From: Candidatus Latescibacterota bacterium
GTDB taxonomy: Bacteria > Latescibacterota > UBA2968 > UBA8231
Length of the DNA: 64,000 nucleotides
Reading direction: 5' to 3'
NCBI GenBank assembly: GCA_965215195.1
Contig: CBDCDC010000002.1
Coordinates: 4,160,001 to 4,224,000 of the forward strand
Shown: in pieces, positions 4,994-25,834 of the stretch
How positions within the stretch are numbered: position 1 is the first letter of the stretch
How the letters are laid out: every line of letters starts with the position of its first letter
Program-made: the position numbers and the translations under genes
The notes under the pieces: model-generated
Databases searched by the model: none
What the model was told of the DNA's origin: nothing
The model's input: the letters and a program-made list of their open reading frames with translations, nothing else

Positions 4994-6046
4994 ATGTTAA
5001 AACGCTTGCAGATACGAAACTTCCGCGGCTTCAATGCGCTCAAAATCGACCAATTGAGCAGTATTAACCTCATCGCCGGAAAGAATAATTCCGGCAAGAC
5101 CAGTTTACTTGAGGCAGTTTTTCTGCTGTCTGGAGGCGGGGACGCAAGTCTAGCAAAAAATGTCAACATTATTCGCGGCTTGGAACTGGATAGTAGAGTA
5201 TCGCCAGTTATGATTGGGCCCTTGTGGAAACAGCTCTTCTCTGATCTGGATATGGAACGGGCCATTGAGATTGAGGGCGAGCATACGACGCATGGTCAAT
5301 TTACTTTGAAAATTACATCCGGGCGACAAGCCACTCCTGAGACTGCTCTTGATCTTATAGAAGAAACTTCGGTGCCAGACCATTTCAGCGAGCGTCCACT
5401 CACATTTCAGTATATCGATCCTTCAGGGAAACGTGTGGAAAGTCAGATACGTGTGAAGGGACAGGAATTTGAAATCAACCAGCCTACTACAAATGCCCCT
5501 TTTATTGCGGCAATTCTCTTGTCTCGAGGTAGAAATATCTATGAAGATGCTACGAGGCTGGGACAATTGAGAAGGAAGAAACAGGGATCTCTACTATTAG
5601 AAGCACTACAAGTTATCGACCCAAAACTGCAAAGCATTGAGGAAAATTCCTCCAGCGGCACCTCCATGATCTGGGGGGATATTGGGTTGTCCGAACTAGT
5701 GCCGCTGCCAGCAATGGGCGAAGGCATGACCCAACTCGCCCGGATCGTTTTGGCCATAGCTTTCATACCGGATGGCGTCGTTCTGGTGGATGAGGTTGAA
5801 AACGGCATTCACCACTCCGTACTGCCCGATGTCTGGCGGGCCATTGACGAAGCGGCCAAGCAGTTCCGTACGCAGGTTTTTGCGACCACGCATAGTCTTG
5901 AATGCGTGATGGCAGCGCATGAATCCCTGAGTGCCGACAGGTTTCGCCTGCATAGGCTTGAAATCGCCGACAGAAAGAGTCGCTGTGTCACCTACGAACC
6001 TGATGCAATCGCTGCCGCAATCCGACACAACCTTGAGGTTCGATAG
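4994..6046 (+). CDS. AAA_15/AAA_21 ABC-type ATPase
   Basis: LQIRNFRGF, GKNNSGKTSLLE, MGEG, LVDEVENGIH, TTHS. Confidence 0.85.
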   Translation: MLKRLQIRNFRGFNALKIDQLSSINLIAGKNNSGKTSLLEAVFLLSGGGDASLAKNVNIIRGLELDSRVSPVMIGPLWKQLFSDLDMERAIEIEGEHTTHGQFTLKITSGRQATPETALDLIEETSVPDHFSERPLTFQYIDPSGKRVESQIRVKGQEFEINQPTTNAPFIAAILLSRGRNIYEDATRLGQLRRKKQGSLLLEALQVIDPKLQSIEENSSSGTSMIWGDIGLSELVPLPAMGEGMTQLARIVLAIAFIPDGVVLVDEVENGIHHSVLPDVWRAIDEAAKQFRTQVFATTHSLECVMAAHESLSADRFRLHRLEIADRKSRCVTYEPDAIAAAIRHNLEVR

Positions 6047-14774: not shown

Positions 14775-15302
14775 ATGGCTAATGCCGTGATTGTCGTCGA
14801 TATGCAGAACGGCTTTATGCGTCCAGACGGGACGCTCTACTGCGGAGATCAAGCGCGGGCGATCATCCCGCGAATCGCCGCACGGGCCGAGCGCGAAAAG
14901 GCCGCTGGGGCCTCCCTGTTTTTCACCCAAGACAGCCACAGCGAAAACGACCGCGAATTCGAGATGTTCCCTCCCCACTGCATCAAAGGCAGCGAGGAGG
15001 AGCACATCATCGCCGAGTTGGCCCCATTGGCCAAAGACGCGCAGATTGTCAAAAAGCGGCGCTATAGTGCCTTTTTCGAGACCGAGTTGGCCGCGGCATT
15101 GGCTGCGCTAGCGCCGGACAAGGTCGTGGTGATGGGCGATTGCACGGATATTTGCGTCCTGCACACCGTGGCCGGGCTGCGCAACCGCGACTATCCGGTC
15201 GAGGTCCCAGCCGATTGCGTCGCCAGCTTTGATCCCCAACAACACGAATGGGCTTTGGGGCACATGGAAAAAATCCTCGGGGCACAGGTCACCAATCGCT
15301 GA
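14775..15302 (+). CDS. pncA: Nicotinamidase / isochorismatase-family cysteine hydrolase
   Basis: VVDMQNGF, D.H, FPPHC, KRRYSAF, GDCTDICV. Adjacent to pncB. Confidence 0.82.
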   Translation: MANAVIVVDMQNGFMRPDGTLYCGDQARAIIPRIAARAEREKAAGASLFFTQDSHSENDREFEMFPPHCIKGSEEEHIIAELAPLAKDAQIVKKRRYSAFFETELAAALAALAPDKVVVMGDCTDICVLHTVAGLRNRDYPVEVPADCVASFDPQQHEWALGHMEKILGAQVTNR

Positions 15303-16303
15303 TGGTAGAGCGCGACCTATACGCGCCCTCGGCTGCGACGCTGGCGGGCGACAACGCGGATATTTACTTCCGCCGCAGTTGCGACATCCTCGCGGCCGAG
15401 CAGCTCAATCCGGTCGTGGCGATGGAGGTGTTTGCCCGGCGGCGCGCCCTGCTGTGCGGCTTGCGCGAGGCCCAAGCTCTTTTGCGGCAAGTGCTCGGCG
15501 CGGAGGCAGAGGTGTGGAGCTTGGACGAAGGGGATTGGATTGAGCCGTGCGAGGTCGCCTTGCGGATTCGCGCGCCCTACCGGCAGTTCGGCCTGTACGA
15601 GACGGCGCTATTGGGAATGCTCAGCAGCGAGACCGGATGGGCCACGGCCGCGGCCGAGTGCGTGGCTGCGGCCGACGGGGTGCCGATCATCAGCTTCGGC
15701 GCTCGGCACATCCACCCGGAGGTCAGCGCGCGGATGGAATACGCGGCCATCGTCGGGGGGTGCGCCGGATGCGCCACCCCGCAAGGGGCTGCCCTCGCCG
15801 GCATTGAGGCAACCGGGACCATGCCCCACGCCCTGATCCTGTGCCTCGGCGACACGCTCAAAGCGGCTAGGGCCTTTGACCGCCACATCGACGCCAAGGT
15901 CGAGCGCATCGCGCTGGTTGATACCTTTAAGGACGAAGCCGAAGAGAGCCTGCGCTTGGCAGAAGCCTTGGGCGAGAAGCTGTCGGGGGTGCGGCTGGAC
16001 ACCCCGAGCGAGCGCGGCCGGGTCACGGCCGAGTTGGTCGCGGAGGTGCGTGCGCGGCTGGACCAAGCCGGGCATAGCCACGTAAAGATCGCAGTCTCCG
16101 GCGGCTTGGACGCCGAGCGAATCGGCTATTTCCGGGCGGCCGGGGCCCCAGTGGATGCCTTTGGGGTCGGCAGCGCGATCAGCGGAGCCGCGCCCATCGA
16201 TTTTACTGCGGACATCAAGGAAGTAGCAGGCCGCCCTCTCGCCAAGCGGGGGCGGATACCGGGGCTTACTGAAAACCCCCGGCTCAAGCGGTTGGAACGC
16301 TAA
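15302..16303 (+). CDS. pncB: Nicotinate phosphoribosyltransferase
   Basis: ADIYF, SFGARH.HP, GTMPHA, LVDTF, VRLDTP, SGGL, FGVGS, AKRG. TGATG coupling to pncA. Confidence 0.88.
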   Translation: MVERDLYAPSAATLAGDNADIYFRRSCDILAAEQLNPVVAMEVFARRRALLCGLREAQALLRQVLGAEAEVWSLDEGDWIEPCEVALRIRAPYRQFGLYETALLGMLSSETGWATAAAECVAAADGVPIISFGARHIHPEVSARMEYAAIVGGCAGCATPQGAALAGIEATGTMPHALILCLGDTLKAARAFDRHIDAKVERIALVDTFKDEAEESLRLAEALGEKLSGVRLDTPSERGRVTAELVAEVRARLDQAGHSHVKIAVSGGLDAERIGYFRAAGAPVDAFGVGSAISGAAPIDFTADIKEVAGRPLAKRGRIPGLTENPRLKRLER

Positions 16304-16315
16304 AAGGAGCATGTT

Positions 16316-17443
16316 ATGAGCAAATACGATTTTGGCAGTGGACGCACCGATCCCGGCTCGTTTCCCACAGAGGCGTTGGCCGAGGCGGCGAGCGTGGCCG
16401 TGCGCGAGCTGGGCGCGGATTTGGTGCGCTATCCCGGCGACATGGGCCATCAGGGCTTGCGCGAGGTCATGGCCATGCGCGAATCCAAGCGCGAGGGCGT
16501 GGAGGTGTCTGCCGACCACATCGCGCTGATGAACGGCTCCATGCAGGCCGTCACGCTGATAGCCGAGGCCCTAATGGAAGGTCCGGGGGATGTGATCGTC
16601 ACCGAGGAATTGACGTATTCCGGGACGATTGCCGCGTACAAGCGGTTGGGGGCCGAGTTGGTCGGGGTGCCGCTCGACGAGCAGGGCATGCGCGTTGATG
16701 CGCTGGCCGACGTTTTGGCGGCTTTGCACCGCCGGGGCACCCGGCCGCGCTTCATTTATACCTTGGCGACCTACCAGAACCCCACCGGCTCGGTCATGCC
16801 GCGGCCGCGCCGCCTCGAGCTGCTCGAAGTGGCGCGCTACTACGAGGCCATTGTGGTGGAAGACAACTGCTATGGCGACGTGCATTTTGAGGGCCCGCAG
16901 GAACCGGCGCTCTACGCGCTCGACGACAGCCCCAACGTCCTGTACATCGGCTCGCTGTCCAAAATTTTGGGCCCCGGGGTGCGGATGGGCTATTTGTTGG
17001 CCCGGCCGCCCATGCTGGGGCGGATCCTCGACCGCCGCTACGACGGGGGCAACAGCTTGCTGACCGCCGCTAGCTGCGCGGCCCTGTTCCGCGACCGACT
17101 GTGGCAGCACTTGGCCGCGACCAATGCCATCCTCAGGGAAAAGCGCGACGCGGTCTTTGCCGGCCTCGCAGAGAACGCGGGCGATCTATGCACGTGGTCG
17201 CGGCCGGTGGGCGGCATGTTCATCTGGATTGAGTTCCCCGCAGCGGTAGATCGCGATCGCCTCATGGCCCTGTGCGCCGAGCGCGGCATTGTGGTGGCGC
17301 GGGGGCAGGGTTTCCACATCCGGCGCGAGGACGTGCCGGCCATGCGCCTCGCCTTTGGCTTTGCCTCGCTGGCGGCCATCCGTGCGGGCGTACCGCTGTT
17401 GGCCGAGTGCATCCACGAGGCGCGGGTGCCCGTGATGGCCTGA
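16316..17443 (+). CDS. PLP-dependent class I/II aminotransferase (MocR/2-aminoadipate transaminase-like)
   Basis: YQNPTG, EDNCY, GSLSKILGPGVRMG, GGMFIW. Confidence 0.85.
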   Translation: MSKYDFGSGRTDPGSFPTEALAEAASVAVRELGADLVRYPGDMGHQGLREVMAMRESKREGVEVSADHIALMNGSMQAVTLIAEALMEGPGDVIVTEELTYSGTIAAYKRLGAELVGVPLDEQGMRVDALADVLAALHRRGTRPRFIYTLATYQNPTGSVMPRPRRLELLEVARYYEAIVVEDNCYGDVHFEGPQEPALYALDDSPNVLYIGSLSKILGPGVRMGYLLARPPMLGRILDRRYDGGNSLLTAASCAALFRDRLWQHLAATNAILREKRDAVFAGLAENAGDLCTWSRPVGGMFIWIEFPAAVDRDRLMALCAERGIVVARGQGFHIRREDVPAMRLAFGFASLAAIRAGVPLLAECIHEARVPVMA

Positions 17444-19338
17444 TGGGCCTGCCCGCAATCGCCTTGGTGCAGATGGAGGTCAAGCCCGGGCGACCCGACC
17501 TGAATGCCGAGCGGATGCTGGCCTTTATCGCGCAGGCGCGGGCGGCTGGTGCTGAGGTCGTGGTCTTTTCCGAGCTGTGCATCAGCGGCTACATCCTCGG
17601 CGACTTGTGGGAGCTGGACGCTTACGTCGAGGACTTTGCCGCGTACAGCGACGAGATTTGCCGGGCCAGCATCGGGTTGACCGTGGTCTTTGGCAACGTG
17701 GCGGTGGACCCAGTCCACAAGGGCCAAGATGGACGGCGGCGCAAGTACAATGCCGTCTATGTGTGCGCCAACGGCGAATACGCGGTGCGCGACGCCGTGC
17801 CCGCCGGGCTGCCCTGCGGCGTCCAGCCCAAGACCCTGCATCCCAACTACCGATTTTTTGACGACGACCGGCACTTCTTTTCGCTGCGCCACTTGGCCGA
17901 GGCCGAGGGCCGGCCGCTAAAGGACTGGCTGCATCCGTACCGGGTGCGGCGCAAGGATGGGCGGCCCTTTAGCTTTGGTGTGCAACTGTGCGAGGACATG
18001 TGGTGCGAAGACTACTGCCACAGCGGCCAGCCCCTCGACACGCTCGCGCTATATAGCGGCCGCGGTGCCGCGGCCGTATTCAACCTCTCGGCCTCGCCCT
18101 TTACTTGGCAAAAAAGCGACAAGCGCAACCGCGTGGTGCGCCAGATCCTAGCGCGCTCGCCCCTGCCGTTTTTCTACGTCAACCAAGTTGGGGCGCAAAA
18201 CAACGGCAAGAATATCATTGTGTTTGACGGCGACAGCACTGCGTACGCGGCCAGCGGGCACATTGCGTGCCGCGCTCATCCGTGGCGGGAACAGCTCGTG
18301 CTCGCGCACCGCGCCGAGATCGCGCCGCCCCAGAGCGAAGTCGAAGCCCAGTACGCGGGCATCCTCACCGGGCTGCGGCACCTCGACGACGTGCGCGGCG
18401 CGGAGAGCAAGTTCCTCATTGCGACGAGCGGTGGCGTAGATTCCAGCGTGGTCTGCTGTCTGCTGGAGCGCACCTTTGGCCCGGAGCGCGTGTTTGCGGT
18501 CAACATGCCGACGCGCTTCAATGCGGCCGTTACCCAAGACAATGCCCGCTCGCTGTGCGCCGCGCTGGGCGTCGACTACCTCTGCTGCCCGATCGAATCC
18601 CTATACGAGGCCGTAGCCGCCCTCGTGCAGGGCGCGGAATTTTCCGGGGGCCGGGGCGAGTACACTCGGTTGGTGGATGAGAACGTGCAGGCGCGCATTC
18701 GCTTTGCCGACGTGCTCTCCGGCTTAGCAGCCAAATACGGACTCGTGTTCACGGCCAACGGCAATAAGACCGAGGTTGCCTTGGGCTACGCCACGCTCTA
18801 CGGGGATGTCAGCGGCGCGGTGGCGCCGATTGCCGACCTGTACAAGGTGCAGGTTTTTGCGCTAGCCCGCTTTCTCAACGAGGTCGTCTATGGCCGCCCT
18901 GTGGTGCCGGAGAATCTGCTCGACGGATCAGTGGTGCCCAGTGCCGAGCTGTCTGCGGCTCAAGACGTGACGCAGGGCTTGGGCGACCCGATCAAGTACG
19001 GATACCACGACGCCGTGCTGCGGCAGTTCATTGAATACCGGCGGCACAGCAGCGATTTGTTGCAGTGGTTTATAGAGGGTGTGCTGCTAGAGCGATTGGG
19101 GTGGGACGACGCGGTGCGCTTTCGCGCGTACTTCCCGGACGCGCGCAGTTGGATCGAAGATCTCGAATGGGTAGAGCGCCAAGTGCGGATCAACTACTTC
19201 AAGCGGATTCAAGCGCCGCCAGTCATCGTCTTGAGCAAGCGCGCCTTTGGCTTTGATTTGCGCGAGACCCAACAGCCCGCATACGCGCCGCGCCGCTGCG
19301 AACAGCTAAAGGCCGAGGCCCTGAAGGTGCGGATTTGA
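17443..19338 (+). CDS. nadE: Glutamine-dependent NAD+ synthetase
   Basis: Nitrilase domain (FSEL, K, LCEDMW) plus SGGVDS, ENVQARIR, GNKTEVALGYATLYGD, PSAEL. Confidence 0.93.
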   Translation: MGLPAIALVQMEVKPGRPDLNAERMLAFIAQARAAGAEVVVFSELCISGYILGDLWELDAYVEDFAAYSDEICRASIGLTVVFGNVAVDPVHKGQDGRRRKYNAVYVCANGEYAVRDAVPAGLPCGVQPKTLHPNYRFFDDDRHFFSLRHLAEAEGRPLKDWLHPYRVRRKDGRPFSFGVQLCEDMWCEDYCHSGQPLDTLALYSGRGAAAVFNLSASPFTWQKSDKRNRVVRQILARSPLPFFYVNQVGAQNNGKNIIVFDGDSTAYAASGHIACRAHPWREQLVLAHRAEIAPPQSEVEAQYAGILTGLRHLDDVRGAESKFLIATSGGVDSSVVCCLLERTFGPERVFAVNMPTRFNAAVTQDNARSLCAALGVDYLCCPIESLYEAVAALVQGAEFSGGRGEYTRLVDENVQARIRFADVLSGLAAKYGLVFTANGNKTEVALGYATLYGDVSGAVAPIADLYKVQVFALARFLNEVVYGRPVVPENLLDGSVVPSAELSAAQDVTQGLGDPIKYGYHDAVLRQFIEYRRHSSDLLQWFIEGVLLERLGWDDAVRFRAYFPDARSWIEDLEWVERQVRINYFKRIQAPPVIVLSKRAFGFDLRETQQPAYAPRRCEQLKAEALKVRI

Positions 19339-19418
19339 ATTAAGACAGTGATTAGTGGCCAGTTTATTACGCGACCGCCGCTTTTCCCCTACCGCCCAAT
19401 TCACCAAAGGAGATTATT

Positions 19419-21026
19419 ATGACCGACCCAATCCTGCTCACCGACGAGCAGATGCGCGAGTTTATCGTCAATGGCTATCTGGTTTTTGAGCCGACCGTGC
19501 CCGCAGGGACGCACGAAGCGTGCTATGAGCGGCTCAACCAGATCATCGACTCGGAGCCTAATCCGGGCAATAACATCCTGCCGCGCGTACCCGCCATGCG
19601 CCACGTGCTCAACTCGCCCGAGGTGCGCGGCGCACTCATCAGCGTCTTAGGCCCGAACTTTTTGGAGCATCCGCACCGCTACTGCCATCCCCTCAAGCCA
19701 GTGGAGGAACCCGTGCCCGCGGCCGAGGCCGAAGAGAGGCTGCGCCGCAACTGCCATCAGGACGGGTACACGCCCATGGGCCATCCGCGCCAGCACTATC
19801 TGCGCTATGCGCGAATCATGTACTATCCGCAGGATTCGCCGGTCGAGTTGGGGCCGACGCACGTGATCCCGGGCACCCAGTTCAATCGCGGACTGACCGA
19901 CGAGGATCGGGCGCGCGCCTTGCCATTGGCCGGCCGGGCCGGCACGGTGTCCCTGACGCACTTTGACGTGGGCCACGCGGCCGGCGTCAGCCTGCTACCG
20001 GTGCATCGGCACATGATCAAGTTCATCTACATGCGAGCCGCCGAGCCGACGGCCCCGACCTGGGACTGCAAAAGCATGCACTGGCAGAAGCCCCACTGGA
20101 GTGAGGTTCCCTACGATCTGGAACTGGCTTGGGCGCACACTTGGGACTGGCTATGCGGCAAGCGGGATCGCTACGATAGCTGCCCACAGGCCACTGGAGA
20201 TGTGGCGGCACTCATCGCCCAGCTCGATCTAGACGTGGATTTAGCGCAGCGGCTTGCGGCGGCACAGCGATTGGCCGGATTCGGCGTTGATGCGGCTGCA
20301 GCCGTGCCAGTGCTCGTGGAGTGCTTGGGCACCGATCACCAAGCCATGCGCACGGCAGCGACCTACGCGCTAGGCGCGATCGGCGAGCCCGCGGTCGCGT
20401 CGCTGGCCAAAGCCTTGCGCACCGCAGGTCGCGAGGCCGACCAACACGAGGCCCCGCCCGTTTGGAGCGAGGGAGCGACTAACATGGAGGACGCGGCCCA
20501 AGCACTGGCGGCCGTTGGCGAGCCGGCGGTTGAAGCGCTCTGTGCGCTGTTGGACGACGAAAGCGAGTGGACTCAAGTCAACGCCGCCTTTGCCCTCGGC
20601 GAAATGGATTCGCACGCGGAGGCAGCAGTCCCGGCGCTGACGCGGACCCTTGAAGAGGGCTCGCATCGCTTGGTGCGCACGGCGCTCGTCGCGCTGGGCA
20701 ATATCGCGCAAGGCGTACCAGTAGAAGCCTTGGGGCGCATGCTCTCGGCCGATCACCCAAATTGGCAGGAGGAAGCTGGCCGCCGCTGGGTGCCCCGCGA
20801 CCAAGTGCGGACCAACGCCGCAATAGCCTGCGCCCAGCTCGGCCCGGCCGCCGCTCCGTTAGAAGCCCAGCTTTTCAGGGCACTCGACGACCCCTGCGGC
20901 CACGTAGGCGCATTCGCGCTCAGTGCCCTGCAGCAGATTGGCTCGCCCACAGCCACGCAGGCCGCGATGGATTATCTCTATTCGCAGCGCTGGGACGCCG
21001 CTATTGACGGCGAGCGGCAGTTTTGA
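19419..21026 (+). CDS. Phytanoyl-CoA dioxygenase-like domain + HEAT repeats
   Basis: HQD, GPTHVIPGT, H motif. C-terminal AxxALG HEAT repeats. Confidence 0.8.
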   Translation: MTDPILLTDEQMREFIVNGYLVFEPTVPAGTHEACYERLNQIIDSEPNPGNNILPRVPAMRHVLNSPEVRGALISVLGPNFLEHPHRYCHPLKPVEEPVPAAEAEERLRRNCHQDGYTPMGHPRQHYLRYARIMYYPQDSPVELGPTHVIPGTQFNRGLTDEDRARALPLAGRAGTVSLTHFDVGHAAGVSLLPVHRHMIKFIYMRAAEPTAPTWDCKSMHWQKPHWSEVPYDLELAWAHTWDWLCGKRDRYDSCPQATGDVAALIAQLDLDVDLAQRLAAAQRLAGFGVDAAAAVPVLVECLGTDHQAMRTAATYALGAIGEPAVASLAKALRTAGREADQHEAPPVWSEGATNMEDAAQALAAVGEPAVEALCALLDDESEWTQVNAAFALGEMDSHAEAAVPALTRTLEEGSHRLVRTALVALGNIAQGVPVEALGRMLSADHPNWQEEAGRRWVPRDQVRTNAAIACAQLGPAAAPLEAQLFRALDDPCGHVGAFALSALQQIGSPTATQAAMDYLYSQRWDAAIDGERQF

Positions 21027-21035
21027 GGGGATGAG

Positions 21036-21122
21036 TTTGAGTGCATCGGCAATGGTCTTCTTCCCTAGAGAACGGTCGATAAAGAAAACAAGTGGATCAG
21101 GCTGCTCGGGTGTATAACTCAC
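21036..21122 (-). pseudogene. Truncated PIN-like (VapC45-type) toxin
   Basis: VSYTPEQPDPLVFFIDRSLGKKTIADAL overlaps the antitoxin end, then runs into the antisense of the convergent PhyH gene. Confidence 0.7.
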
Positions 21123-21810
21123 AGCGGATCGCTTCTTCGATATCGAGCGTCGGGCGATCATAGTCGTCCGCTAATGCACTGATTGCCTCCCCGGCCTTGT
21201 AGCGTTCGGCAATAATAGCCGTAGGAATCCCAGTGCCTGCGAGCACCGGGCGACCAAAAGATATGCGAGGATCAATGACAATTGCCTTGGGTTCTTCCAT
21301 GAGTTGTTGGCTTGGGCGCTTGCGCGTGAAGGGGTATAGCCTCCGGGCATAACCAGCCGAATCCCTATCAATGCGCCGCAGATGCGCCTGCAACAGGTTC
21401 CTAAGTACCAGTTGTCCAGCTTGAGAGACATTTATGAGTTGACCGTATTCTTCGACAAAGAGGTCCAAGCCGTCGGTTTCGATCTTGTGGTATGCGAGAG
21501 GGTGATCGGACGTTAGTTCTTCTTTGATGAAATCGATAGCAATCCTAGCCTTGTGCAGCGATATGCAATGGTCGCGGCGAATGGCATCGAGCATGTGGAT
21601 TTCGACCAGATTGATAAAGGATAGAAGGTTCTGGCTATCGTCTGGTAGGTCGATCACAGGCTGGAAGAACTGGTCTCCTCCGCTAGTAGGATATTTGCGG
21701 CCTCGCACCCAAGAGCGAAGCGTAGTCACGGGAATGCGCAGGTAGTGGGCAGCCTCGGGAAAGCTGTAACAGGGCATTGCGCGTATGTCATCTGTTGCGA
21801 TAGATCTCAT
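21097..21810 (-). CDS. DUF433-containing antitoxin (VapB45-like)
   Basis: N-terminal HTH YSFPEAAHYL..P..TLRSW, LSFINLVE, C-terminal IDPRISFGRPV.GTGIPT...IEEAI. Confidence 0.85.
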   Translation of the reverse strand: MRSIATDDIRAMPCYSFPEAAHYLRIPVTTLRSWVRGRKYPTSGGDQFFQPVIDLPDDSQNLLSFINLVEIHMLDAIRRDHCISLHKARIAIDFIKEELTSDHPLAYHKIETDGLDLFVEEYGQLINVSQAGQLVLRNLLQAHLRRIDRDSAGYARRLYPFTRKRPSQQLMEEPKAIVIDPRISFGRPVLAGTGIPTAIIAERYKAGEAISALADDYDRPTLDIEEAIRCELYTRAA

Positions 21811-21864
21811 GCCATAAGGTCCTTTAGCCGAGAGACGAATGCGCTGATAGACCATTAGTTTGCA

Positions 21865-22770
21865 CTAATGGTCTCTAGGCATTACGCCCTCTTTCATAGG
21901 TTTAAGTGTTCCATCACGCAAGTACATAGCGTATCTCTGGAATTGCCACTCTAGGGAGAAAATTTGTTCTGCCCAATCTCTCAGAGGCTGACTGCACGCA
22001 TTATTGCGAGCAAGAGCCTGTAGGGTTGGAATTTGTTCACCAATTTGTTCAGCTATTTCGTTATAAAAACTGCTTCTTGCTTGTTCTGGAAAGTGACTAC
22101 GCTCACGAATACGAAACTGAACTGGATATTTTTGCTTGATTATATTGACCCAATACAGCAGTTTTCGGTTGTTTACGACGTATGGATCCACCCCTATGAA
22201 GCTAACATGTTGGGTTGACAACACACCGTTGGGCACTGTACAGCTAATCTCTGGATCTTGAGTCTTTGTCTTTTGTCTGCCAAATTCCTCAGCCAACTGA
22301 TCTCGGAACTTGATATAAGTGCTTTTAGGAGTGCCAGAGTTGCTTGAATACTTGAAGAGACGATTAATATCTTCAAGTGTCTTGAGTGCTTCACGTTCGC
22401 GGTTGAAGCCTTTCGCTCCTGCTGACCAGAGACATACTGCAACATCGGAGGCTTCCAATAGAGCCGAAGGACGTAGTTGAAATAGTATGGGCCCGTAGGG
22501 ATTTGGAACACTTTTTGATCCCTTCGCAAAAGAGCTACCAAAGTCTGACAAGTTTACGAAAACTTTATCCCACATATTGTTTTCACGGTCAATAGCGTCG
22601 GTCTGAAATGGCGTAAATTCTAATTGTCTACTTTCAAGCAAAGCACGTGAGGGAATTCCTCCAAGACTAATATACGACTCAAAGTCAATTAATTGACAGG
22701 CATGATAGAGGAATACTTGACGCTCTTCAAATAAATCCACCAAATCTTGAATGTCGTTACCGGTTATCAT
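21865..22770 (-). CDS. Hypothetical protein with DarT-like ADP-ribosyltransferase motif pattern
   Basis: FLYH...GGIPSR ... DKVF ... YGPILF ... PEI ... V.FIGV, paralleling DarT LYH..GLLS..AE..I.V. AT-richer than flanks. Confidence 0.5.
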   Translation of the reverse strand: MITGNDIQDLVDLFEERQVFLYHACQLIDFESYISLGGIPSRALLESRQLEFTPFQTDAIDRENNMWDKVFVNLSDFGSSFAKGSKSVPNPYGPILFQLRPSALLEASDVAVCLWSAGAKGFNREREALKTLEDINRLFKYSSNSGTPKSTYIKFRDQLAEEFGRQKTKTQDPEISCTVPNGVLSTQHVSFIGVDPYVVNNRKLLYWVNIIKQKYPVQFRIRERSHFPEQARSSFYNEIAEQIGEQIPTLQALARNNACSQPLRDWAEQIFSLEWQFQRYAMYLRDGTLKPMKEGVMPRDH

Positions 22771-22790
22771 GAGATTAGCCTTTCCAACAG

Positions 22791-23729
22791 TTAAAACAGA
22801 TTAAGTTGTTTGCTTTCAGGGCCTTTTGTGGGAACTTTATCGCCTATGTCCTGTTCAAGACGAGTTGCTTCCTCTTTTAGAAGCTCAACAAATATAGGTT
22901 GCGCTTTTGCCCAAATTGCCTCGGCTTCGTCAAATGAAAGTCCTACTTTACCTAGTCTCCACTCTACCTCTTTATCCCACCATCGGGAGGGTTTGTGTTT
23001 TTTTGTGACATGACCGCTTTCACAATAGAAACTAATCCAATTCAGTTGCCTCCAAGAAAATCGAGTCTCCTTTGCAACTTTGTGAAGAGCGGCTTTTCCT
23101 TGAGGGGTGTGTTTATCTAATGCAACCCAAAACGGAAAATTCATTTCACTATTAGTATTAGGATCTGTGTACAGCTCGGGTAATCCATCCCTAATAGCTA
23201 AATATGCTGTTGCTTGTATAAAGGCCCTATCCCAAGGCCATCCGCCCTTTCGATAAACTTTTTCAGCCTGTTCGACGAGTCTAGTTTCAGTTTCGCGCGT
23301 ATTTGAACATTGAGAAATTGCCCATTCCCAATATGTGTTAGCATCTGTAATCGCCTCACAAACCCGTTGAATGGTATCATCTTCTTCACAGCCTGTCAGT
23401 ACTGACCTATCGCCTTCTGAAAGTGCATATGCCAGAGATCCGAGTCCAGCTGCGTCTTTGAACTTTACAGAGTTGGCAAGTTCGCTGAGAATCTCTACCA
23501 TTGCCACCTGTTCCTCGTGCTTCTTAGGTGGCCTCCATTTAACCATGAGAGGCCAGCATTCTTCAGCGATTATCACACCGATTCGTTGCCTGAGCCACCT
23601 GATGTCCCCTATTTCATAAAGGTGATTGACAACCTTAGTAACAAGGTCAGAGTTACCACGGCGCACTGCTTTTTGAAGTAGAGAACGACAACGTTGATCC
23701 GTATTCGAATTAACCTTGCGCATGTACAT
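22791..23729 (-). CDS. Helical protein resembling the RarA/MgsA C-terminal region (no Walker motifs)
   Basis: SLLQKAVRRG, IIAEE, ALDKHTPQGK. AAGGA RBS. Ends 20 bp before the ART-like gene. Confidence 0.55.
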   Translation of the reverse strand: MYMRKVNSNTDQRCRSLLQKAVRRGNSDLVTKVVNHLYEIGDIRWLRQRIGVIIAEECWPLMVKWRPPKKHEEQVAMVEILSELANSVKFKDAAGLGSLAYALSEGDRSVLTGCEEDDTIQRVCEAITDANTYWEWAISQCSNTRETETRLVEQAEKVYRKGGWPWDRAFIQATAYLAIRDGLPELYTDPNTNSEMNFPFWVALDKHTPQGKAALHKVAKETRFSWRQLNWISFYCESGHVTKKHKPSRWWDKEVEWRLGKVGLSFDEAEAIWAKAQPIFVELLKEEATRLEQDIGDKVPTKGPESKQLNLF

Positions 23730-23928
23730 CAGTTGGTCCTTCAATTGAAGTTTGATTAAGCTTGACTCTCTGTTTTTCCCAACGTTGTGCGTCTGGTCGT
23801 GATCGGTAAACGGCCAAGGAGGTGTTCTGTGTACCAACGCGTCATTGAAGATAACAACGAAACCAGCCCCGTTACAATTTGTCGAACGCAATCCATTCCA
23901 TCCTCTCTGTGGACAAAACATGGGTAAT

Positions 23929-23980
23929 GCCCATTAGATAGCGCAAGCATCGCTCAGGGCGTCTTGCGTACGCCTTGGAG
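23929..23980. repeat. Duplicate of tetR 3' end and downstream flank (pairs with 25232-25282)
   Basis: About 51 bp with 3 substitutions and 1 indel. Both copies encode LQGVRKTP-stop. Confidence 0.85.
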
Positions 23981-24013: not shown

Positions 24014-25117
24014 TTAACGATTGGGGACTAAGGGGCTGCCTTCGGCTTTCTTGCGCTCTATTTCCGCATGGGTTTTGTATAGCTGGAGGTAGCGGTGTGC
24101 AGTCGGCGGATGCGTACCTCTAAAGTTGTTTGACGCAACGGGATTGCGTTCCGCCATGCGTCGCCAGAAGTCGGCCGCCCCCTCGGTATCAAAGCCAGCC
24201 CGGGCCATCAGATAGAGTCCAACGTAGTCGGCTTCTTGCTCAAAGGCTTGGCTAAAGGCGATTGCACCAGCCTCCATTGTGCTTTGTGTGATGGTGCCAA
24301 AGGTCGGTACGCCCGTTACCGCCCATTCAACAGCCGCTCCCATGATTCCGCCGAGTAGAGCATTCGTTTTCTTTTTATCGACATGTCCCTCGGTGCAGTG
24401 AGCCAACTCGTGGGCGATGACCAAGGCCAATTCACTATCTGTCGCAAAATCAAGCATTCCTGCTGTTAGGACAATATTTTCACCGTCTGTATAGGCATTA
24501 ACATCTTGTCCCTCCGAATGATATACCAAGTGAGAGCAAATCGGCTCCGCCTTTATAGGGATTTCGATAATCGTATCTTTGTTTGCTGCAACCTTGCGCT
24601 GGACCGTAAAGATCGTCGGCTCCTCTGACGCATGACGTTTAAGCAGCTTGTGAAGATTGCTTTGGTACTCAAGGTCGTATTCGTTCCAGTGGGGCCATAT
24701 TGTCTTAATCGGCTCTCCCCCGATCCTCGTAATCTGGTCTCCGGGCTGAAGACCAGACTGTGCGGCTGGGGAGCCGGCTACAAGTTCCACGACTATCGGT
24801 TGCTCCCGCAACTTCTCTATGCCATAATAGCGCAACCTCAAGAGACGATCCCAAGGCTTCATTTTCTGCGTACTCGCCGAGTCTAAGTAGCTGAATCCGA
24901 ATTGGAAGCGAGTCTTTTTGCCACATAGCGCGGCGTTGGCTCGCATGATAGACGGCGCAAGGCGCGCTATTCGCTCTTGCCGCTGCATGGACAATCGGAA
25001 GATTCTTTCCAATTGATGGAGCATTTCCTCGGTGACTTCAGAAGAAGAAAGCTCAGGGATTTTGTACCTAGGAGCACATGAGCCAAGAATAAGAAGAATC
25101 ACGAATAGGGTAGGCAT
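24014..25117 (-). CDS. M48-family zinc metallopeptidase with PDZ domain, lipoprotein
   Basis: LILGSC lipobox, GSPAAQSGLQPGD PDZ, NAY, HELAH, E.EADY.G, THP. Confidence 0.88.
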   Translation of the reverse strand: MPTLFVILLILGSCAPRYKIPELSSSEVTEEMLHQLERIFRLSMQRQERIARLAPSIMRANAALCGKKTRFQFGFSYLDSASTQKMKPWDRLLRLRYYGIEKLREQPIVVELVAGSPAAQSGLQPGDQITRIGGEPIKTIWPHWNEYDLEYQSNLHKLLKRHASEEPTIFTVQRKVAANKDTIIEIPIKAEPICSHLVYHSEGQDVNAYTDGENIVLTAGMLDFATDSELALVIAHELAHCTEGHVDKKKTNALLGGIMGAAVEWAVTGVPTFGTITQSTMEAGAIAFSQAFEQEADYVGLYLMARAGFDTEGAADFWRRMAERNPVASNNFRGTHPPTAHRYLQLYKTHAEIERKKAEGSPLVPNR

Positions 25118-25255
25118 ATAGAGGCACCTTTCATCCTTCTTGGTTGTGCTGCAAGTCGAGTGGGAGGCTGGTCCTCTGCGCCGCCGTGAGCCAGCGCATT
25201 TTGAGCTGCAGCGCAGTTCAAGATAGTTTTGGCCCATAGATAGCGCAAGCGTCGC

Positions 25256-25834
25256 TCAGGGCGTCTTACGCACGCCTTGGAGGAAGATGCGCATGATGGT
25301 ATCGACCATGGCCTCTACGCTCAGGCCCTTTGCGTGGATCATCACCGAGCGCACCATGCCGCGGAGGATAGCAGCTTCGACCTGCGGGTGCTCAACCGAG
25401 AAGACGCCCTGTTCAATGCCATTTTGCAGGACCGTCTCGATCGCGGCGCGCTGGATGCGCCGTTCCTCGTGCCAGCGCCTGCGGTTTTCGCCCTTGCCGC
25501 TCCCGCTCTTGCCGTCCTCGTGCGACATCAAGCGGAAGAAGAAGCGGTTCTGGTTGAAGAAGGAGACAATGGCGTGGACCATCCGGCGGAGTTCCTCTTC
25601 CGGGTCCTGCTGGCGATTGGCCTTGCGCTGAAGCTGCTCGTTGAGCCGCCGGATGCCTTCAAAGACCACCGCAAAGTACAGCTCTTCTTTGTCGGCAAAG
25701 TACGTGTAGATCGTCCCCTTGCCGACGCCGGCTTGGTGGGCAATATCGTCCATGAGCACTTCGTCGAAGCGCTTGGCCGAAAAGAGGCGGGCCGCCTCTT
25801 CAAGGATGAGCTTTCTGCGGTTAGTTCTGGCCAT
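25256..25834 (-). CDS. TetR/AcrR family regulator
   Basis: ILEEAARLF...DDIAHQAGVGKGTIYTYFADKEEL. Confidence 0.92.
   Translation of the reverse strand: MARTNRRKLILEEAARLFSAKRFDEVLMDDIAHQAGVGKGTIYTYFADKEELYFAVVFEGIRRLNEQLQRKANRQQDPEEELRRMVHAIVSFFNQNRFFFRLMSHEDGKSGSGKGENRRRWHEERRIQRAAIETVLQNGIEQGVFSVEHPQVEAAILRGMVRSVMIHAKGLSVEAMVDTIMRIFLQGVRKTP

Follow-up and report, generated by a model that had tools for sequence, protein, structure and literature searches.

A predicted DarT-like ADP-ribosyltransferase and its upstream partner with a RarA-tail-like fold form a conserved bacterial gene pair

Introduction

How might a DarT-like enzyme be controlled when the gene beside it encodes neither of the partner types known for DarT? 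The question is raised by two small genes in a 64,000-nucleotide stretch of DNA from a Candidatus Latescibacterota bacterium (assembly GCA_965215195.1, contig CBDCDC010000002.1, positions 4,160,001 to 4,224,000), which we call the window. The upstream gene encodes a protein named A here, and the downstream gene a protein named ART, for ADP-ribosyltransferase. In a published account, DarTG systems are of two types, in which the partner is either a macrodomain protein (DarG) or a NADAR protein, and both kinds of partner chemically reverse the mark placed on DNA (PMC11543638). From motifs in the window, a sequence-only reading had proposed that ART has a DarT-like fold, that A resembles the C-terminal domain of RarA, and that the two form a new toxin-antitoxin (TA) or sensor/effector defence pair.

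Results

Two adjacent genes of low GC content

The open reading frame (ORF) list and the translations place both genes on the same strand, with the short gap that the sequence-only reading had described:

Gene A, 22791-23729, minus strand: 312 amino acids (aa)
A-ART spacer, 22771-22790, minus strand: 20 bp, with a GGAAAGG Shine-Dalgarno-like stretch
ART gene, 21865-22770, minus strand: 301 aa, downstream of gene A

Gene A has a GAAGGA stretch 7-12 nt ahead of its ATG, and its database version starts at the second Met, two codons later. The GC content is 0.41-0.45 over 21750-23750 vs 0.63-0.68 over the host genes at 15000-20750, in line with the earlier remark that the pair is AT-richer than its host. 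Both are real genes: of the candidates that were scored, 260 and 1166 were homologues of one or the other protein at E<=0.001, many of them full-length. All named homologues of both proteins are annotated as 'hypothetical protein'. Scans of Pfam, NCBIfam and PADLOC gave neither protein an accepted family, and PADLOC-DB v2.0.0 held zero matches for A or ART at E<=1, so that the pair matches no defence-system model catalogued there. Two matches were discarded, MADF_DNA_bdg (19.6 bits, below the 22-bit cut-off) and RecD NF008127 (13.8 bits vs a cut-off of 671). PHROGs gave no match for either window protein, and two homologues of A from other loci matched a family of unknown function weakly. Promoter and terminator scans were uninformative (5 sites vs 4.6 expected, and 2 vs 4.7 expected), and no tRNA gene was found in the 64-kb window.

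ART is closest in predicted fold to DarT

The AlphaFold2 model of ART (mean pLDDT, the predicted local distance difference test, 94.7; predicted TM-score 0.91) and the conservation analysis were based on 53 family members. The model divides the protein into two parts:

ART, about residues 8-235: predicted DarT-like ADP-ribosyltransferase fold
ART, about residues 226-297: predicted C-terminal helical extension

When the model was compared with the PDB by Foldseek, the best match was E. coli C7 DarT1 (E 2.4e-5). Seven more of the top ten were entries of M. tuberculosis DarT, Thermosipho DarTG and Thermus DarT, and the remaining two were SopF. The DarT matches (8baq, 7yk3, 7omu, 7omv-y) ranged from E 2.4e-5 to 1.4e-2, with other ADP-ribosyltransferases ranking after them, and VIA re-alignment to the DarT entries gave Z 9.6-11.1 across 172-181 residues. 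A VIA-wide search of 48,161 chains, independent of Foldseek, again ranked four DarT representatives 1-4 (Z 10.4-11.0), and nearly all remaining rows listed for the ART model were ADP-ribosyltransferases. The nearest neighbours after DarT were Tpt1 (Z 7.6 and 6.2) and CopC, SopF and OspC3 (Z 5.7-6.4). By a language-model measure, the ESM Atlas neighbours of ART were DUF4433/DarT clusters (scores 0.91-0.93). Structure prediction and fold searches thus rank DarT closest, as the sequence-only reading had guessed from motifs.

Those motifs are all present in the translation (L21-Y22-H23, G37-G38-I-P-S-R42, V70-F71 and P173-E174-I175). H23, on the first strand, is invariant, and E174, with which the strand 174-178 opens, is conserved in at least 90% of the 53 sequences; it is also retained in every ART locus that is devoid of A. 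By conservation, strand position and a short alignment that is weighed below, H23 and E174 are a candidate catalytic pair, E174 being matched to the DarT Glu by position only. The predicted model has an ADP-ribosyltransferase fold with a conserved His and a late Glu, which would line a putative NAD-binding cleft; at the level of the fold, the outcome that the sequence-only reading had named as speaking against it, a predicted structure with no such cleft, did not arise.

The ART family is large, with 492 clusters at 50% identity, and spans at least 8 phyla by record titles. Five long homologues of 465-552 aa carry C-terminal extensions; one of them (P0371) has an HTH_40 domain, and the other four (P0258, P0303, P0304, P0341) have no Pfam match.

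A carries a helical domain that resembles the RarA tail

Protein A was modelled as an all-helical protein (AlphaFold2, pLDDT 89.8). Foldseek found no global match for it, and local ones to a C-terminal fragment of Enterococcus MgsA (probability 0.97) and to E. coli MgsA. In the VIA-wide search the top five entries were all C-terminal structures of MgsA/RarA (2r9g, 3pvs, 3bge, 8g28, 2qw6); residues ~9-115 aligned with the MgsA C-terminus at Z 10.1-11.2 and a root-mean-square deviation of 1.8-3.9 Å over 77-114 residues, with 16-25% identity. The next unrelated match scored Z 6.9, with the caveat that for helical bundles a Z of ~13 can arise by chance. When the PDB was searched by sequence profile, residues 4-55 were placed on the start of the same MgsA fragments; this match is weak (E 0.11-0.91) and, lying in the same region, adds support to the fold call. 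Taken together, the model comparisons suggest that residues ~9-115 are RarA/MgsA C-terminal-domain-like, a likeness at the level of the fold only, and it is for these N-terminal ~105 residues that the RarA resemblance proposed from motifs held up. The rest of the protein, ~200 further residues, is helical with no clear solved match.

Family profiles set A apart from RarA itself. None of the 54 A members matched Pfam MgsA_C (PF12002), and a genome-wide search with this profile found a single locus elsewhere, a true RarA, and not protein A. Alignment by hhalign against 28 MgsA_C segments reached a probability of 2.5%. The two motifs quoted by the sequence-only reading are present in A (S16-LLQKAVRR-G25 and A203-LDKHTPQG-K212); hhalign put D205-K-H-T208 of the second in an insertion relative to MgsA_C, and because of this we claim no equivalence with RarA residues. 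The earlier observation that A is devoid of ATPase motifs was also correct: its translation contains no P-loop and has no AAA Pfam match, and the 312-aa model is all-helical.

Nor does A match the families that partner DarT, as the sequence-only reading had maintained, since 0/54 members matched Macro, NADAR or ADP_ribosyl_GH. Macrodomain, NADAR and ADP-ribosylglycohydrolase (ARH) folds were absent among the listed structural matches of A, which carries little weight as residues ~186-300 were barely covered. Several polar residues are invariant or nearly so in the 99 A sequences compared (E56, E57, K89, D167, D205, H207, T208), and this set is kept in all three contexts of A.

A and ART are linked and co-evolve

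If homologues of the two genes were unlinked elsewhere, the idea of a pair would fail; they are in fact linked in 25/34 genome loci and 62/70 assessable metagenome loci. The search of genomes with ART gave 34 loci, in 25 of which A lies directly upstream on the same strand; the others comprise seven full-length ARTs with no A and two fragments. The search of metagenomes with A gave 80 loci, and ART is adjacent in 51: downstream on the same strand in 49, convergent in one, and beside a fragmentary A in one. In 10/80 a shorter subfamily, ART', stands immediately upstream of A, and in one (L149) ART' and A form one ORF. This single ORF is unconfirmed, as it occurs on one contig and its A part is devoid of the first ~85 residues. 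Ten of the 80 loci do not have enough room to judge and eight have neither ART nor ART'; the count of 62/70 includes the ART' cases. ART' is a second DarT-like subfamily of ~225-300 aa that shares the N-terminal motifs of ART and has no Pfam match and no C-terminal helical domain. Its loci are as follows:

ART' upstream of A, gene order reversed: L120, L123, L128, L130, L132, L134, L144, L145, L146 (and L116, L149)

In seven relatives (L003, L010, L011, L012, L016, L020, L023) the spacer is replaced by a 4-nt overlap, the A ORF ending at 6004 and ART starting at 6001 in locus coordinates. The pairwise distances of A and ART co-vary over 61 pairs (r=0.86, reached by 0/999 permutations), a figure that shared ancestry inflates. 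In the phylum of the window, A and ART both occur in the same 2/168 genomes. The ART ORF is broken in 3/25 paired loci (L012, L016, L027) where A is intact, as expected if ART is the harmful member. Homologous pairs are also found in cultured strains, namely Pseudomonas endophytica BSTT44, Comamonas guangdongensis, Microcoleus and Geitlerinema. IMG/VR viral contigs contained no relatives of A or ART, and by tblastn A had no matches in plasmids or phages and ART none in plasmids.

Three of the seven A-less ARTs have another conserved partner upstream. In these three Planctomycetota loci (L026, L028, L031) ART is preceded by a protein of ~200-250 aa with 4-5 predicted membrane spans, 72-77% identical among the three; two of them share a conserved ORF of ~93-119 aa further upstream. 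Two ART-less A genes (L091, L143) lie ~10 bp after a helicase gene of ~1315 aa with Helicase_C and MZB (MrfA Zn-binding) domains, and in two other loci (L093, L103) an A homologue is found beside the gene of a T7-like single-subunit RNA polymerase.

The pair is part of a mobile cassette

In the window, A and ART belong to a low-GC segment that relatives either carry or lack as a whole:

Low-GC cassette, 21033-23935, 2.9 kb: A, ART and the HTH_66-DUF433 gene
HTH_66 and DUF433 gene (Pfam), 21097-21855, minus strand: starts 9 bp after the ART stop

The sequence-only reading had placed the pair in an islet with 'TA debris'; this supposed debris is the HTH_66-DUF433 gene, which is intact. Among the 34 loci the gene follows ART only in the window and its closest relative (L001), so that it counts as a passenger specific to this lineage, outside the conserved pair. 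The relative L001 is syntenic with the window, and the match breaks at 21032/21037 and ~23980. In run X5, one contig (depth 92) passes from 21032 straight to 23936 and thus omits 2903 nt, and another (depth 7.8) contains the cassette with zero differences. Stretches without coverage were given no weight in this comparison. Contigs of the same run at depth 65 join 22088 to 23037 and 23121 to 23877, internal deletions from which it follows that an abundant relative carries a decayed, internally deleted copy of the pair. The GC content of the pair is below that of its flanks in 22/24 loci. A 1612-nt contig of metatranscriptome run X19 spans 22354-23934 at ~92% identity and bridges A and ART, which is compatible with their co-transcription in a relative, DNA contamination being possible.

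A 100-aa ORF at 20859-21161 (minus strand) was considered as a toxin partner of DUF433 and rejected: it has no family and spans the cassette border, and in L001 the places to which its first 42 aa and its last 58 aa map are separated by 2.7 kb, so that it is probably not a gene. Beside the cassette, a 53-nt direct repeat (23928-23980 and 25230-25282, 89% identical) flanks an M48 and PDZ peptidase gene (24014-25237, minus strand); L001 has one repeat copy and no such gene, a pattern indicative of either an insertion or a deletion mediated by the repeat.

Many relatives lie among defence genes

When the neighbourhoods were read within ~5 kb, neighbours of the restriction, TA, reverse-transcriptase, Schlafen, TIR or HEPN type turned up in ~20/32 full-length loci, a count with no background rate to set it against, so that any enrichment is qualitative. 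The settings of individual loci include:

McrB (AAA_5) and McrC directly upstream of an A-less ART: L024, L025 (Chloroflexota)
GmrSD and an Eco57I-type methylase: L021
HD, HSDR_N, GmrSD and methylase-HNH: L006
Schlafen/AlbA_2: L004, L020; in L004 also a caspase
HipBA: L029
HEPN and nucleotidyltransferase (HEPN-MNT): L031
TIR and Fic: L032
TacA and a PIN-like gene: L018
Prokaryotic E2/ThiF: L017
ART, then a same-strand RVT_1 reverse transcriptase of 546-565 aa, then a convergent HD and HD_assoc gene: L017, L018, L019, L022 (cyanobacteria)
Pair in the F1Fo ATP synthase operon of Poribacteria, between atpG and atpD: L002, L003, L007, L008, L010, L011, L012, L016

L018 keeps ART and the reverse transcriptase and has no A, and L025 also has a helicase with DEAD and MZB domains nearby. 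Among the Poribacteria operons, L012 contains a DNA methylase between atpH and atpA, and L008 and L012 an Asp-protease-like ORF between atpD and atpC.

Comparison with known systems

The pair shares with DarTG1 (DarT1 and NADAR) and DarTG2 (DarT and macrodomain DarG) a two-gene cassette with a predicted enzyme of the DarT-type ADP-ribosyltransferase fold, a first-strand His and a late Glu as candidate catalytic residues, and a sporadic, cassette-like distribution among defence genes. It differs in several respects: ART is ~90 residues longer than DarT and has a C-terminal helical domain that DarT does not have, it is acidic where canonical DarT is basic, it stands outside Pfam DarT, and its partner has a RarA C-terminal-like helical fold in place of a Macro, NADAR or ARH family match. 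The gene order differs as well, the partner being upstream here and downstream of DarT in the two canonical pairs of the same genome:

Canonical DarT pair, same genome (L035): G000:C2:1385848-1389474
Canonical DarT pair, same genome (L036): G000:C2:403380-406943

One of these canonical DarTs, which has a Macro-domain gene after it, lies wedged between the genes for EPSP synthase and shikimate dehydrogenase. The other (314 aa) has a UvrD-like helicase before it and a gene for a 514-aa ARH after it.

Likewise, the superposition of A residues ~9-115 on the C-terminal domain of RarA/MgsA (WRNIP1/Mgs1) is set against the absence from A of the AAA+ ATPase module and of a Pfam MgsA_C match, and against ~200 extra residues with invariant polar residues of their own. 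The likeness in predicted fold extends over the whole length in uncharacterised stand-alone RarA-tail-like proteins of viruses (Foldseek vs BFVD, E 1.7e-4 to 4.9e-4, TMq 0.48-0.56), from Stenotrophomonas phage DLP_5, Hyperionvirus, Pithovirus and one unnamed entry. In agreement with these matches, the ESM Atlas neighbours of A were mostly Nucleocytoviricota clusters (scores 0.94-0.96); they differ in that A has no sequence match in the phage, plasmid and IMG/VR collections. In the full-text literature that we searched (subscription-only papers and supplements lay outside its scope) we found no description of a pair of DarT-like and RarA-tail-like proteins, and the available portions of bioRxiv 10.1101/2023.12.14.571748 and PMC11833690 describe none.

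Discussion

We favour, at about an even chance, the reading that A and ART are a DarT-type conflict module of two genes, acquired horizontally, in which a NAD+-dependent nucleic-acid ADP-ribosyltransferase would be controlled by a partner that does not look like a hydrolase, and whose role would be TA-like or that of an abortive-infection defence. ART would act as a mono-ADP-ribosyltransferase through H23 on the first strand and E174 on the late strand. Its substrate would most likely be nucleic acid, either the bases of single-stranded DNA (ssDNA), as for DarT, or the ends of RNA or DNA, as for Tpt1, and this modification would halt replication or expression. A would be a stand-alone, diverged helical protein of the RarA/MgsA C-terminal type, an obligate companion for most family members, and it would control ART, whether it keeps the enzyme inactive or guides or licenses it on nucleic acid. 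The layout resembles that of a type II-like TA pair, with two small genes side by side in one orientation whose linkage is conserved. The upstream position of A with tight or overlapping spacing, and the broken ART ORF beside an intact A in 3/25 pairs, speak for A neutralising ART. A may be an antitoxin, a sensor or a reversing enzyme.

Several results weigh against the conflict module. None of the 53 ART members matches Pfam DarT (PF14487/DUF4433), nor does the window ART at E<=1, and the same profile scores 204.7 and 68.3 bits on two canonical DarTs from other parts of this genome; by sequence, ART is a family separate from DarT despite having the closest fold. Aligned by hhalign with 24 canonical DarTs drawn from genomes of the window's phylum, ART matched over 38 columns at a probability of 5%, short and weak, with LYHACQ...GGIPSR falling on the first strand-helix motif of DarT, His included. 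The median isoelectric point (pI) of the ART family is mildly acidic (6.15, vs 8.6 in the same 24 DarTs), and A is basic (median 8.2) and not an acidic DNA mimic. The E174 column holds Gln or other residues in ART', and 7/32 full-length ART loci have no A, which is unexpected for an obligate antitoxin. Eight Poribacteria pairs sit in the ATP synthase operon and two Ktedonobacteria pairs between trmD and ftsK, with no defence island at either place. To these points are added the uncontrolled neighbourhood count and the possible DNA origin of the metatranscriptome contig. The earlier proposal of a new TA or sensor/effector defence pair is borne out in part: the neighbourhoods fit it, and the A-less ARTs and the pI values sit badly with A as a simple antitoxin.

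A sensor role for A stays alive because of the A-less ARTs, the acidic ART with its basic A, and the A genes beside MZB helicases. A would then be a nucleic-acid-recognising subunit and not an antitoxin, reading ssDNA gaps, forks, ends or single-stranded DNA-binding protein and recruiting or licensing an otherwise inert ART, as the sensor of a sensor/effector defence. This is somewhat unlikely in our view. The charges are the reverse of canonical DarT, the partners of ART appear to be swapped for a membrane protein (three Planctomycetota), McrBC upstream (two Chloroflexota) or a reverse transcriptase downstream (four cyanobacteria, one A-less), A directly follows the 1313-aa helicase in two loci, and the A/ART order is reversed for ART'. 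Set against this are the small upstream gene with tight spacing or a 4-nt overlap, which is the classic antitoxin-toxin arrangement, and the decay of ART with A kept, which fits a toxin and its antidote; moreover, the similarity of A to RarA is at the fold level only, and any DNA binding by the RarA C-terminus is putative here. Alternatively, the conserved polar residues could mean that A is an enzyme. The clue is that E56, E57, K89, D167, D205, H207 and T208 are kept in all three contexts; A could represent a new class that strips ADP-ribose from nucleic-acid bases on a RarA C-terminal helical scaffold, a proposal that we regard as improbable. If true, macrodomains, ARH and NADAR would be joined by A as a fourth reversal family, the pair would merit the name 'DarTG3', and a nucleotide- or ADP-ribose-handling role would be suggested for the RarA-tail-like proteins of phages and giant viruses.

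The doubt may also concern ART itself. Its fold might serve something other than ADP-ribosylation of DNA bases, such as modification of RNA or DNA ends, Tpt1-like 2'-phosphotransfer or ADP-ribosylation of proteins or small molecules, or ART might be a pseudo-enzyme scaffold. Tpt1 and the protein-modifying CopC, SopF and OspC3 are indeed its next structural neighbours, ART is acidic and has a helical domain that is absent from DarT, and ART' does not keep the Glu column. DarT nevertheless stands ~3 Z units above all others with ~180 residues covered, the main family conserves both the His and the Glu, and the McrBC, GmrSD and reverse-transcriptase neighbours are DNA-centred. We consider such another use of the fold quite unlikely. 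A housekeeping role, in which the pair would be a reversible regulatory modification system and not a selfish or defensive one, has a precedent in mycobacterial DarTG, which tunes replication. The abstract of PMC12170906 reports that DarTG has a regulatory role in M. tuberculosis. The stable retention of the pair in the eight Poribacteria operons and between trmD and ftsK in the two Ktedonobacteria would agree with it. We find it very improbable given the sporadic distribution (2/168 genomes of the phylum), the presence/absence polymorphism, the low GC content relative to the flanks and the many defence or mobile genes nearby, and the ATP synthase operons themselves host other foreign genes, a methylase (L012) and the Asp protease ORF (L008, L012).

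On the conflict-module reading, what emerges is a large uncatalogued DarT-like family whose constant companion resembles neither known type of partner, and resembles instead a poorly understood part of the replication-rescue ATPase RarA, its tail. Because homologous pairs exist in cultured strains, the pair is directly testable. Whether A blocks, aims, senses or erases, finding its role would widen the rules by which nucleic-acid ADP-ribosylation systems are understood; the pair could add a defence system to the catalogue, and A could give a first handle on its orphan relatives in phages and giant viruses.

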